DNA of 64,000 nucleotides from Methylobacterium sp. (GTDB lineage: Bacteria > Pseudomonadota > Alphaproteobacteria > Rhizobiales > Beijerinckiaceae), in the NCBI GenBank assembly GCA_020253445.1, contig JADCBP010000008.1, forward strand, positions 75,787 to 139,786. The letters run 5' to 3'. Of this stretch, positions 5,945 to 9,501 are shown one piece after another. A model generated the notes under the pieces. It was not told where the DNA came from and did no database searches. It saw nothing but the letters and a program-made list of their open reading frames with translations. Within the stretch, counting starts at the first letter, position 1; each line of letters starts with the position of its first letter. The translations under genes and the position numbers were made by a program.

Positions 5945-7924
5945 ATGATGATGACGATCACCGTCACGTTCCCGGACGGCGCGCAGCGCCAGTTCCCCCT
6001 CGGCATCACCGGCAAGGATATCGCAGGCGGGATTTCCCCCTCGCTCCTGAAGCGCACGGTCGCGATGGCGCTTGATGGCGCGGTGTGCGATCTCGCGGAC
6101 CCGATCGCGAGCGATGCCCGGATCGAGTTCCTCACGCGCGAGGACCCGCGCAGCCTCGAACTCATCCGCCACGATTGCGCGCATGTGCTCGCCGAAGCGG
6201 TGCAGGAACTCTGGCCCGGCACGCAGGTGACCATCGGCCCGGTGATCGAGAACGGCTTCTACTATGATTTCGCCCGCGATACGCCCTTTACGCCCGAGGA
6301 TTTCCCGGCCATCGAGAAGAAGATGCGCGAGATCATCGCGCGCGATGCCGCCTTCACCAGGGAATTCTGGAGCCGCGAGCAGGCGAAGGATTTCTTCCGC
6401 GCCAAGGGCGAGGCCTTCAAGGTGGAACTGGTGGATGCCATTCCCGCCGGCGAAGACCTGAAAATGTATGCCCAGGGCCAGTGGATCGACCTCTGCCGCG
6501 GGCCCCACATGACCTCCGTCGGCAAGGTCGGCACGGCCTTCAAGCTGATGAAGGTGGCCGGCGCCTATTGGCGGGGCGACAGCAACAATCCGATGCTCAC
6601 CCGCATCTACGGCACCGCCTTCGCGAAGCAGGAGGAACTCGACGCCTATCTCCACCGGCTCGAGGAGGCGGAGAAACGCGACCATCGCCGCCTGGGCCGC
6701 GAAATGGATCTCTTCCATTTCCAGGATGAGGGGCCAGGCACGGTCTTCTGGCATTCCAAGGGCTGGACGATGTTCCAGCAGCTCATCGCCTATATGCGTC
6801 GCCGCCTCAGGCGCGATTACGAGGAGGTGAACGCCCCGCAGGTGCTGGACAAATCGCTCTGGGAGACCTCGGGCCATTGGGGCTGGTACCAGGAGAACAT
6901 GTTCGCGGTGAAGAGCGCCCATGCCTTCATGAACCCGCTCGACCCCGAGGCCGACCAGAAGGTTTTCGCGCTGAAGCCGATGAACTGCCCCGGCCATGTG
7001 CAGCTCTTCAAACATGGGCTGAAATCCTATCGCGACTTGCCGATCCGGCTAGCCGAATTCGGCCTGGTGCATCGCTATGAGCCCTCCGGCGCGCTCCACG
7101 GGCTGATGAGGGTGCGCGGCTTCACGCAGGATGATGCGCATATCTTCTGCACCGAGGAGCAGCTTGAGGCCGAGTGCCTGAAGATCAACGAGTTGATGCT
7201 CTCGGTCTATCGCCATTTCGGCTTCGACAGCCTCGTGGTGAAGCTCTCGACCCGGCCCGAAAAGCGCGTCGGCTCGGATGAGGCGTGGGATCGCGCCGAG
7301 GACATCATGCGCCGCGTGCTCGCAAAGATCGAGCGCGAGAGCGGCGGGAAAATCCGCACCGGCATCAACCCGGGCGAGGGCGCCTTCTACGGTCCGAAAT
7401 TCGAATATACCCTGCGCGATGCCATCGGGCGCGACTGGCAATGCGGCACCACGCAGGTCGATTTCAACCTGCCGGAACGCTTCGGGGCCTTCTATATCGG
7501 CGCGGATGGCGAGAAGAAGCAGCCGGTGATGGTGCATCGCGCCATCTGCGGCTCGATGGAGCGCTTCCTCGGCATTCTCATCGAGAATTATGGCGGGCAT
7601 TTCCCGCTCTGGCTCGCGCCGGAGCAGATCGTGGTCTGCCCGATCACGTCTGAAGCCGATCCTTACGCCGAAGAGGTGGTGGAGGCCTGCTTCGCGGCTG
7701 GTTTGCGCGCCCGCGCGGACCTCCGCAACGAGAAGATCAGCTACAAGGTGCGCGAGCATTCCCTTGCCAAGGTGCCGGTGATCTTCGCGGTCGGAAAACG
7801 CGAGGCGGAGGAGAAGACGGTGACCATCCGCCGGCTCGGCAGCCAGGCGCAGGAGACGAAATCGCTGGTGGATGCGCTCGCCGCGCTGGAGGCCGAAGCG
7901 GTTCCGCCCGATGAAAAGCGGTGA
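5945..7924 (+). CDS. thrS: threonine--tRNA ligase
   Basis: 659 aa. It has a TGS-like N-terminus ([13 protein letters not shown]), editing-domain [11 protein letters not shown], class II core ([42 protein letters not shown]) and an anticodon-binding C-terminus. Confidence 0.95.
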
Positions 7925-8449
7925 GGGAGCGGCCCGGAGGCGATCAGCCGAGCAAAAACTCCCGCCGCATCGGGCAAACCCGTGCGGGGACAGGGGGGCG
8001 CGGGTCGCCCGCCGGCGGTGACCGGCTGGCACATGCGAAAGGAAGGGAGCCGGTTGAGCCGGCTTCCCGACGAGCGGACAACCCGCGCCTTCAGGATTTT
8101 GCACTGACGGGGCCGGTTACGTCCGACCCGCGGACCCCCATGGGCTGGAGGACCCCGCCAAGCGCAGCGGTTTTCCGGGAGCCCCGCGCCGCGCGATCGG
8201 CGCTGCTGCCCCGGCTGGCATGCCTGTTTTCTGGCCGGGGGGTTTCGCACGGAACCGCGTTCCGCCTCACCACCGGCCCAGACGCGCCACCGCCCGACCC
8301 TGAACCCCGCCGCGAACCCGCCCGTTCGCGTGACGGGCCGCCCTGACCGGCGAGGCGAGGGGATTATGGGGGCGGGAGCGGGGATAAGGTTGCGGGAAGA
8401 GCCTAGCCCTCCTGCTGCATAATTGGCGTCTCAATTAAGAGTGCTATTT

Positions 8450-9019
8450 TTACTTTGGAAGCACTGAATTGGCAACTTCTACCCAGTATTCTGCGTCAAA
8501 TTTTTCAATATTACCGTGATCTAATTTGGCATTTAAATCGTCGCCAACGTCGACATAAACACATCTGTGTTTCATGTCTTGGATTGCATTAGTTTGTGAC
8601 AAAGCAAAAAACCTGTTGTACCGTGAATTTGTTGCGCTGTTTGCCATCGCGTCGATGAGTTGATCTTCTAAAAAATGCATAGGAATAATTTTTTCTTTGT
8701 CCTGAATATCGGAATGTTTTTCAAGCTTCAAACCCATCTCGTCCAGATGAGATTTGATCGCTTCAAGAAATAATTCTGCCATTAGATATGATGACGCAAA
8801 TTTCTGTTTGGATCGGTGAAGATTTTTTTGTGACAATTTTTCGCCTGATTTAATAATTCGAAATTTCCCCGACTCTTCTATGGATAAAATTGAAAAATAT
8901 ACAGAACTTGGGTAAGAACCATTATTGAAAAGCAATCTTGCATCGTTCAGCAAGCGCAACGCATTGCTCTTTATTAGTTCAAGCGTTGGATCGAGTATTG
9001 CATTTTGGGAGTCAGGCAT
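8450..9019 (-). CDS. AbiV-family (HEPN-superfamily) abortive-infection protein candidate
   Basis: 189-aa ORF in sharply low-G+C DNA; two 60-nt lines hand-counted at 38% and 32% G+C. N-terminal SNALRLLNDARLLFNNGSYPSSVYFSILSIEESGKF fits my recollection of the AbiV family helix pair ending in EE.GK. It also has NLHRSKQKF and KHRCVYVDV. There is no SD, and the start is 13 bp after the upstream stop. Confidence 0.5.
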   Translation of the reverse strand: MPDSQNAILDPTLELIKSNALRLLNDARLLFNNGSYPSSVYFSILSIEESGKFRIIKSGEKLSQKNLHRSKQKFASSYLMAELFLEAIKSHLDEMGLKLEKHSDIQDKEKIIPMHFLEDQLIDAMANSATNSRYNRFFALSQTNAIQDMKHRCVYVDVGDDLNAKLDHGNIEKFDAEYWVEVANSVLPK

Positions 9020-9032
9020 TGCGTGATATTTT

Positions 9033-9269
9033 TTAAAAAGCCTTAAACGTGATCACCGTCTGCGTGTCCTGGATGCCGGGGATGACCTGCACCTTGTTGG
9101 CGACGAAATGGCCGATATCGTTCGCGTCATCGAGGTGGAACTTCGCGAGAATGTCGTAATTGCCGGCCGTGGAATAGATTTCGGAAGCGATTTCGGCATC
9201 GGCGAGGGCGGTCGCGACCTCGTAGGTCTTGCCGAGCCTGCATTTGATCTGCACAAAAAATGTTTGCAT
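9033..9269 (-). CDS. stand-alone Lrp/AsnC ligand-binding (RAM) domain protein
   Basis: From ATG 9269 (AAGGAAAG upstream): MQTFFVQIKCRLGKTYEVATALADAEIASEIYSTAGNYDILAKFHLDD...IPGIQDTQTVITFKAF. This is 78 aa with the RAM-domain pattern and no HTH. Confidence 0.7.
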   Translation of the reverse strand: MQTFFVQIKCRLGKTYEVATALADAEIASEIYSTAGNYDILAKFHLDDANDIGHFVANKVQVIPGIQDTQTVITFKAF

Positions 9270-9395
9270 TTTTTGTTTTTCTTTCCTTGTCGCTGCGCGA
9301 CGTCCGGGCTGCCGTTCCTTTTGCGCTTTCGCGCATATTCTTGCCGACGGCCCTTGGCCTTTGCCAGCGCATAAACTCGTTCGCCTTGCCGCCGC

Positions 9396-9490
9396 GTCAT
9401 GGCCGGGTTGAGCCCGGCCATCCATGACTTCCTAGCCGCTTGGCGCGCCAGAATAAAGACATGGATGGCCGAAACAAGTCCGGCCATGCC
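9396..9490. repeat. REP-like nested palindromic intergenic element
   Basis: Left arm is tcATGGCCGGGttgagCCCGGCCATCCATGac. The right arm gaCATGGATGGCCGaaacaagtCGGCCATgcc is its imperfect inverted copy, and each arm is itself a hairpin. It resembles the widespread alphaproteobacterial element whose spurious translation reads ...MAGL..AIHVF.... Confidence 0.7.
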
Positions 9491-9501
9491 GGACCGGCGG
9501 A

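Follow-up and report, generated by a model that had tools for sequence, protein, structure and literature searches.

Introduction

A studied member of the AbiV family of abortive infection proteins is that of Lactococcus cremoris MG1363 (AbiV1 protein plus abiV2 RNA; PDB 9bj5/9bj6/9bj7; Zhu et al.). Lactococcus AbiV is a dimeric, metal-independent RNase that degrades ribosomal RNA (rRNA) in vitro, and it forms a type III toxin-antitoxin pair with abiV2, a non-coding RNA gene that ends 12 nt upstream of the protein gene (bioRxiv 10.1101/2024.05.05.592566). Here we describe a gene of the same Pfam and NCBIfam family in a 64,000-nt stretch of a metagenome-assembled genome (MAG) of a soil/water alphaproteobacterium, labelled Methylobacterium sp. 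(assembly GCA_020253445.1, contig JADCBP010000008.1, positions 75,787 to 139,786), referred to below as the window. The gene lies between a host gene for a RAM domain, the ligand-binding domain of Lrp/AsnC regulators, and the convergent gene thrS (Table 1).

In Lactococcus AbiV the HEPN motif was assigned to 91-RNHKSKH-97. The R91A and R91A/H97A variants lost RNase activity, with H97A tested solely in combination with R91A, and removal of 14 or 23 N-terminal residues abolishes activity as well, indicating that residues 1-23 are needed (bioRxiv 10.1101/2024.05.05.592566). Earlier, Anantharaman et al. 2013 had described AbiV as a family without the canonical Rx4-6H motif, in which another conserved histidine precedes a basic residue, an "alternative histidine" arrangement that it shares with the HEPN protein AF0298.

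The protein encoded in the window has in common with Lactococcus AbiV the NAxRLLxDA helix, the IEExGK dimer-interface motif and the histidine and lysine of an HxxK motif (H93/K96 there, H68/K71 here). Both genes are chromosomal and low in G+C, encode proteins of similar length (201 aa there, 189 aa here) and start 12-13 nt past an upstream element of ~180-240 nt. The two proteins are only 15-20% identical in structural alignments, however, and the place of the dedicated non-coding RNA of Lactococcus is taken here by a protein-coding gene that is conserved in the host; moreover, the host here is an alphaproteobacterium of 65% G+C. Metagenomic AbiV-family proteins (P0004, P0006, P0002 and others) can be aligned over their full length, share the same invariant residues and mostly carry Q at the H97 position, but are at most 32-33% identical to the window protein. 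More remote are AF0298-type HEPN-T (2hsb), TT1696 (1ufb) and ST0689 (1wol), which share the four-helix HEPN core without significant sequence similarity and are often paired with a minimal nucleotidyltransferase (MNT) antitoxin gene; no MNT gene is adjacent to the AbiV gene in the window, where the neighbours are the RAM gene and thrS.

We lean, modestly, towards the view that the window holds a horizontally acquired, strain-variable 1.1-kb AbiV segment, present in some lineages of one Hyphomicrobiales species, that encodes an abortive-infection RNase expressed by read-through. In two of its parts, the family identity of the protein and the horizontal acquisition of its gene, we have very high confidence. 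Whether this AbiV actively defends its host against phages is, in our estimate, about evenly balanced.

Results

Three independent hidden Markov model (HMM) libraries call the protein AbiV, as the initial annotation of the window had proposed from its N-terminus. Two of them do so above their curated cut-offs: Pfam HEPN_AbiV PF18728 gave 62.8 bits against a cut-off of 27.1 (residues 15-186, model positions 8-153 of 155) and NCBIfam AbiV_defense TIGR04498 gave 58.8 bits against 27. The third, PADLOC AbiV, matched at E 4e-10 and covers just residues 21-79, the N-terminal third. A search of PHROGs gave no match. When a profile of 50 relatives was compared with the PDB, the AbiV structures 9bj5/9bj7 were matched at E 6e-14. 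In several MAGs the exact protein already carries the NCBI annotation "AbiV family abortive infection protein", and the window AbiV is a divergent member of this known family.

How divergent it is became apparent in two large searches. The word-indexed search of 5.8 billion protein clusters returned its own cluster and one protein 29% identical, and nothing else. HMMER, run exhaustively on 1.84 billion cluster representatives, returned 142 relatives, the best of which is 32-33% identical over its full length once P0003 is set aside, an 83-aa fragment of this species' own allele that is 97% identical over residues 1-68. Apart from the species' own alleles, no relative closer than 32-33% over the full length was found among ~15 billion proteins. 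Taken with the HMM matches, this places the protein within the family proper, at the end of a long and isolated branch.

In the AlphaFold model, built from 40 family sequences (pLDDT 81, pTM 0.72), a short beta-hairpin accompanies a bundle of helices. In a Foldseek comparison with the PDB, ranks 1-20 and 22-25 were taken by AbiV chains of 9bj5/9bj6/9bj7 (probability 0.99-1.0), with the HEPN protein 2hsb at rank 21 and 1ufb and 1wol further down. The same three proteins were reported as structural neighbours of Lactococcus AbiV (bioRxiv 10.1101/2024.05.05.592566). The ranking of the predicted model, at modest scores, supports AbiV membership. The initial annotation had also raised the possibility of a diverged HEPN effector rather than a true AbiV. 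By its HMM matches the protein is a bona fide AbiV; what stands of that suggestion is that it is without both residues mutated in Lactococcus AbiV.

The gene occupies an abrupt drop in G+C content. In 200-nt windows, G+C is 0.34-0.395 across positions 8400-8999, against 0.73-0.745 in the flank at 8000-8399, and recovers to 0.57-0.63 at 9200-9500. The open reading frame (ORF) has 37.0% G+C and the interval 8415-9032 has 36.9%, compared with 64.7% for the entire 64 kb. All 570-nt windows together average 0.648 (sd 0.037); the lowest of them, at 0.363, starts at position 8431 and is ~7.7 sd under the mean, and the patch is the sole region below 50% G+C. At third codon positions G+C (GC3) is 0.35 in the AbiV-family ORF and 0.76 in the adjacent RAM gene. 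The drop and the presence of exactly one ORF of at least 60 aa in the patch, with the N-terminus as first quoted, agree with the initial annotation.

Where that annotation saw a fragment of 0.6 kb, comparison with sister genomes revealed a larger segment. Empty sites were found in conspecific genomes, with borders at stop codons: the foreign segment (~7925-9040) measures 1,108 bp from stop codon to stop codon and consists of the AbiV gene and 525 bp of additional DNA. In alignments of filled and empty loci the 1,108 bp share nothing with the 161-bp empty spacer, indicating replacement and not a simple insertion. The border on the RAM side falls within the last codons of that gene, which read AAG GCT TTT TAA in filled and AAA GCG TTT TGA in empty loci, without a change in the encoded amino acids; the border facing thrS lies 0-3 nt from the stop codon.

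The exact AbiV protein is present in 25 blocks of the sequence collection and the identical RAM protein in 89, a block being the unit counted by the look-up index of the collection. All loci with the exact AbiV are arranged in the same way, with the RAM gene, 13 nt, AbiV, 525 bp and the convergent thrS. The identical RAM protein also occurs at empty sites, and in many loci thrS lies 161 bp past the RAM stop. This empty spacer is 95-100% identical among strains, and its first 42 nt recur behind the RAM gene of other species (L025, L027); judged from its sequence, the 161-bp spacer is the ancestral state. A G+C content 7.7 sd under the mean is thus combined with conspecific empty sites, and both speak for acquisition.

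The conserved beginning of the empty spacer is of some interest in itself. This element of ~42 nt, CGCCAMGCGATCAATCGCRGGCTTCTGCAAGGCGTTTTGAGG, stands behind the RAM stop both at empty sites and in other species (L011:6238-6279; L016, L025, L027). In the predicted fold it is base-paired to the final codons of the RAM gene. It may be a terminator or regulatory hairpin of the RAM gene. At positions 9020-9032 of the window it is absent, lost through the replacement.

The co-acquired 525 bp were found in filled loci alone, and their tblastx matches are G+C-rich noise. No donor of the insert was identified by blastn or tblastn in plasmids or phages, nor in IMG/VR, and a 24-mer from the 525-bp spacer is absent from JGI metagenomes. 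As initially stated, there is no integrase or transposase (among called genes within 10 kb on either side) and no tRNA (in positions 1-25000). A flanking direct repeat, which had been said to be missing, does exist: an imperfect repeat of 11 nt (10 of 11 matching; minus strand AAAAATAGCAC and AAAAATATCAC) brackets a unit of 582 bp, with a shuffle p of 0.002-0.007 in a post hoc test. Since the repeat is missing from the empty site, it is not a duplication of that target.

Two other origins of the segment were considered and rejected. An assembly artefact is ruled out by the same junctions in independent NCBI, Logan, ENA and JGI assemblies. Arrival within a divergent tract of homologous recombination was likewise dismissed, as there is no cluster of single-nucleotide polymorphisms private to filled loci beside the junctions.

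The initial set of retrieved loci was clonal, with 100% identity across the insert and the adjoining 4 kb of either flank. The 90% protein cluster contains other alleles, at 96-97% protein identity, which occupy the same site in other MAGs and samples with markedly different flanks. A single clonal and very recent acquisition is ruled out by these alleles on different flanking haplotypes. Compared with L108, the window differs by ~1% in the insert and by ~4.8% in thrS, where the divergence sets in right at the insert edge. For the same lineages, divergence at synonymous sites amounts to 0.105 for thrS and to 0.009 for AbiV, ~12-fold lower in AbiV. This pattern fits an insert younger than its flanking haplotypes, and it also fits recombination of the flanks with the empty-site majority that stops at the edge of homology.

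The thrS haplotypes (window 5945-7924 compared with L108:7100-9073 and L011:6399-8372) are deeply diverged within apparently one species, with a ratio of nonsynonymous to synonymous rates (omega) of 0.1.

The four AbiV alleles differ by nine nonsynonymous substitutions (R22H, A27V, S63P, F116L, T130I, A145E, H168Y, V180I, V182I) and one synonymous substitution. An omega of at most 0.2 is rejected (p 0.003), and omega = 1 is compatible with the data (p 0.36). The ratio of 9:1 contrasts with 16:47 in thrS (p 0.0002), and the nonsynonymous rate is 3.3-fold that of synonymous and spacer sites (p 0.048). Such an excess reflects either diversifying selection, as in conflict with phages, or lost constraint, and the data do not separate the two.

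Discussion

We propose the following sequence of events. The 1.1-kb segment replaced the ancestral 161-bp spacer between the RAM gene and thrS in some lineages, and its low-G+C half encodes the deeply diverged AbiV-family HEPN protein. AbiV would then share the mRNA of the RAM gene as its second cistron. If the protein behaves like its Lactococcus homologue, a HEPN dimer may form through the invariant E48/E49/K52 interface. On phage infection the metal-independent RNase, which acts on rRNA in Lactococcus, would stop translation and abort the infection. Its active site would be of the family-typical "alternative histidine" type (H68 and K71) and not the canonical Rx4-6H.

The expression step is suggested by the arrangement of the junction. 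The last codons and the stop codon of the RAM gene are themselves part of the junction, and the AbiV ATG lies 13 nt past the RAM TAA without a Shine-Dalgarno sequence: the gap at 9020-9032 (AAAATATCACGCA on the minus strand) contains no GGAG-like element. Consensus scans found no sigma-70-like site upstream of AbiV on the minus strand and no terminator-like site between the RAM gene and AbiV, and the RNA structure around the start codon is nothing unusual (fold z 0.06). Given that neither a promoter nor a Shine-Dalgarno sequence belonging to AbiV can be recognised and that no terminator precedes the gene, it is probably the second cistron of the RAM mRNA, expressed as read-through from the host RAM promoter. 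The arrangement of stop and start codons had been described correctly at the outset, as had a palindrome overlapping the RAM stop codon, which is TTTTTAAAAA at 9030-9039, with the stop at 9033-9035.

The AT-rich AbiV gene also contains four antisense sigma-70-like matches (+ strand, 8660-8857); across the region there are five such sites, compared with 0.7 expected from shuffles. Foreign DNA that is AT-rich typically shows such sites when its host is rich in G+C. They could lead to antisense transcription into the RAM gene.

For the active site, alignment to 9bj5 with the profile of 50 relatives equates H68 with H93, K71 with K96, Q72 with H97 and N66 with R91. Across 143 relatives there is little or no variation at E48, E49, K52, H68 and K71. 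The first three align to E66/E67/K70 of Lactococcus AbiV, of which E67 and K70 are dimer-interface residues. Both family-invariant motifs are thus present in the window protein, the E-E-x-x-K interface and HxxK (H68/K71), whereas the canonical Rx4-6H is not (66-NLHRSKQ-72 compared with 91-RNHKSKH-97 in Lactococcus). The position equivalent to H97 is Q in 124 of the 143 relatives and H in 13, and the column of R91 is variable. Given that Q is usual at this position, and given the description of the family by Anantharaman et al. 2013, the absence of Rx4-6H does not exclude membership. The protein therefore carries the signature of the family without either of the residues tested in Lactococcus. 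From these alignments, H93 may be the conserved catalytic histidine of AbiV, as Anantharaman et al. 2013 implied, and the missing Rx4-6H weakens a direct transfer of the Lactococcus mechanism.

Several observations weigh against the reading of the window AbiV as a functional, read-through-expressed RNase. R91 and H97 of Lactococcus AbiV are N66 and Q72 here. The N-terminus is ~18 residues shorter, with 18 residues before the NAxRLL helix against ~36 in Lactococcus, and the predicted model begins its helix at residue 11; N-terminal length is reported to vary across the AbiV family (bioRxiv 10.1101/2024.05.05.592566). Lactococcus AbiV requires the upstream abiV2 RNA for defence (bioRxiv 10.1101/2024.05.05.592566), and in the window the 13 upstream nucleotides abut the host RAM gene and leave no room for a dedicated RNA gene. 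In the 525-bp segment the search for an antitoxin RNA gave no Rfam match and no tandem repeats, with fold z of -0.7 and -0.3; no model of abiV2 exists that could serve as a query. In alphaproteobacteria, MucR typically silences foreign genes that are rich in AT (PMC9410896). The Foldseek matches to AbiV are modest in absolute terms (E 0.009-0.2, TM-scores (TMq/TMt) 0.36-0.60). Among the substitutions, R22H and A27V, in two alleles, hit near-invariant residues, and the ratio of nine to one is also expected of a gene that drifts without constraint. In view of the absent R91 and H97 equivalents, the shorter N-terminus and the missing space for an upstream RNA gene, the Lactococcus mechanism can be carried over plausibly but not securely.

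Many of the same observations suit an alternative that we take to be a real if minority possibility, namely that a bona fide AbiV ORF was recently captured and is now a silent or decaying passenger, unexpressed or inactive in its host and drifting to loss. An omega compatible with 1, the changes at near-invariant positions, the replacement of R91/H97 by N66/Q72, the absence of a promoter, Shine-Dalgarno sequence or antitoxin RNA belonging to AbiV, and MucR silencing are all expected of a passenger. Even the native chromosomal abiV of Lactococcus gives no detectable AbiV protein without cloning (bioRxiv 10.1101/2024.05.05.592566). An ENA scaffold of 527 bp (L112) has an AbiV allele that is identical through codon 67 and then continues, at the codon of the invariant H68, as unrelated sequence of ~48% G+C; the scaffold represents either an allele that has been interrupted or a chimera made in assembly. 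Against decay, the frame of 189 codons is intact in four alleles, although in DNA this AT-rich a random frame would remain open with a probability of only ~1e-6 (an estimate from base composition), and Q at the H97 position is the norm of the subfamily and not a sign of decay. The nonsynonymous rate exceeds that of neighbouring non-coding and synonymous sites, which points to diversifying selection, and the islet has been kept in several lineages with different flanking haplotypes.

The precedent of Lactococcus AbiV as a toxin-antitoxin pair raises a further alternative, in which a HEPN RNase is held in check by an antitoxin and its main effect is its own stabilisation in the chromosome, not phage defence. 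Candidates for the antitoxin are an RNA from the 525 bp, the RAM mRNA, or a factor encoded elsewhere. As in Lactococcus, where an RNA gene ends 12 nt upstream, a gene (here of 237 nt) occupies the same relative position, 13 nt upstream; a ParE/Phd pair fills the same gap in a related species (L033), and AbiV relatives are located in toxin-antitoxin clusters, with toxin-antitoxin and HEPN genes in the neighbourhoods of the more distant ones, a setting that is defence-like as well. We nonetheless think an addiction module unlikely, given that the RAM gene, conserved in the host, occurs at empty sites too and that no repeat array, Rfam family or unusually stable fold was found in the flanks. Since toxin-antitoxin activity and abortive infection are not exclusive, the proposal is a refinement more than a rival.

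A comparable arrangement is seen in P0002, an example of the nearest relatives (29-33% identical), whose ATG overlaps the stop of an upstream dCMP/cytidine deaminase gene (L021:767-1866). It also leaves no room for an upstream RNA gene.

The third alternative concerns the site rather than the protein. When GTDB species genomes were scanned with the RAM protein, 17 related species, namely Rhabdaerophilum and MAGs under the labels Beijerinckiaceae or Hyphomicrobiales, had the RAM gene next to a convergent thrS, with gaps of 259 to 2,832 bp. None of the 17 has AbiV. The cargo differs by species (Table 1): the spot has been used repeatedly, and AbiV is one of its several alternative occupants. Six related species have a small ORF directly behind the RAM gene, on the RAM strand. 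It starts 5-15 nt past the RAM stop in L031, L034, L036, L038 and L040 and 49 nt past it in L027. In L027, L034, L036, L038 and L040 its G+C is 0.33-0.48, against 0.61-0.65 for the whole locus. None of these last five passes a Pfam or NCBIfam cut-off or matches PADLOC; those of L038 and L040 are homologous to each other.

The locus resembles known defence and toxin-antitoxin hot spots in its presence/absence variation between the same core genes, its varied cargo and its lack of mobility genes. It differs from them in that the cargo is a single small gene 5-15 nt past the stop of the same upstream core gene, and in that AbiV is the only recognised defence gene among the cargoes seen. One could imagine that the 3' end of the RAM gene is a family-wide landing pad, where promoterless, AT-rich single-gene cassettes (AbiV in the window, orphan genes of other kinds in at least six sister species) are caught 5-15 nt past the stop by an unrecognised targeted mechanism and expressed from the host promoter, with the TAAAAATAnCAC repeat as the footprint. 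We regard this as a long shot. In a variant of the idea, the RAM mRNA would have been co-opted as the RNA partner of AbiV.

That AbiV was never acquired, and is instead ancestral at the locus and deleted in most strains, is very improbable: the presence of the islet in several lineages with ~1% internal divergence, and borders that coincide with gene ends, would suit such a history, but the empty spacer is no deletion product (its 161 bp are unrelated to the segment and its first 42 nt are conserved in L025 and L027), the gene is missing from all 17 related species with this synteny, its G+C and GC3 are far from host values, and its synonymous divergence is ~12-fold below that of thrS.

Returning to the acquired AbiV segment that we favour, it extends the AbiV family to a high-G+C alphaproteobacterium through a protein at most 33% identical to anything on record. 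The filled and empty alleles in one population amount to a natural experiment on phage defence by a lone AbiV without the dedicated upstream RNA, R91 and H97. With the equivalents of H93/K96 invariant and that of H97 mostly Q among the 143 relatives, the catalytic assignment of AbiV may deserve a second look. The small AT-rich genes that recur behind the same core gene hint at a permissive or targeted capture site, which is not established.

Table 1. Features at the AbiV locus of the window (first nine rows) and in the gap between the RAM gene and thrS of related species
Feature	Coordinates	Strand	Basis or remarks
AbiV-family (HEPN) ORF, 189 aa, 37% G+C	8450..9019	-	ORF call, HMMs, structure model
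Host RAM-domain (Lrp/AsnC ligand-binding) gene, stand-alone, 78 aa	9033..9269	-	PF01037, 49 bits
A-rich gap of 13 nt from RAM stop to AbiV ATG, without Shine-Dalgarno sequence	9020..9032	-	AAAATATCACGCA
thrS, convergent with AbiV; its stop codon is the other border of the replaced segment	5945..7924	+	ORF call and Pfam domains
Co-acquired 525 bp, 70.5% G+C, with an AT-rich tail of ~35 nt at 8415-8449	7925..8449	.	Unalignable to the 161-bp spacer
Direct repeat copy 1, 11 nt, overlapping the AbiV stop codon	8441..8451	.	Repeat search; minus strand AAAAATAGCAC
Direct repeat copy 2, 11 nt, directly after the RAM stop codon	9023..9033	.	Repeat search; minus strand AAAAATATCAC
Terminator-like hairpin, then AGTTTTTGCT; ~470 nt past the AbiV stop and shortly ahead of the thrS end	7961..7978	-	Consensus scan only
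Second terminator-like hairpin, AbiV strand	8048..8064	-	Consensus scan only
Gap cargo: Lrp and RidA	L025 (same contig as L015)		
Gap cargo: ParE toxin (94 aa) and Phd/YefM antitoxin (84 aa)	L033:6455-6983		
Gap cargo: DUF1330	L032, L037		
Gap cargo: DUF2332	L040		
Gap cargo: DUF1554-like secreted protein	several loci		
Small ORF behind RAM gene	L027:6287-6766	RAM strand	
Small ORF behind RAM gene	L031:3525-3764	RAM strand	
Small ORF behind RAM gene	L034:6234-6731	RAM strand	
Small ORF behind RAM gene	L036:6253-6690	RAM strand	
Small ORF behind RAM gene	L038:2960-3286	RAM strand	
Small ORF behind RAM gene	L040:6245-6532	RAM strand	

Finally, the genus label Methylobacterium looks doubtful. NCBI labels the MAGs concerned (GCA_0202530xx-0202533xx; L025/L015 PERO01000019.1) 'Methylobacterium sp.' and one protein record 'Rhodobacter sp.'. 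By similarity of the RAM gene and thrS, Rhabdaerophilum and Beijerinckiaceae/Hyphomicrobiales MAGs come closest among named relatives, and G+C is ~64-65%.

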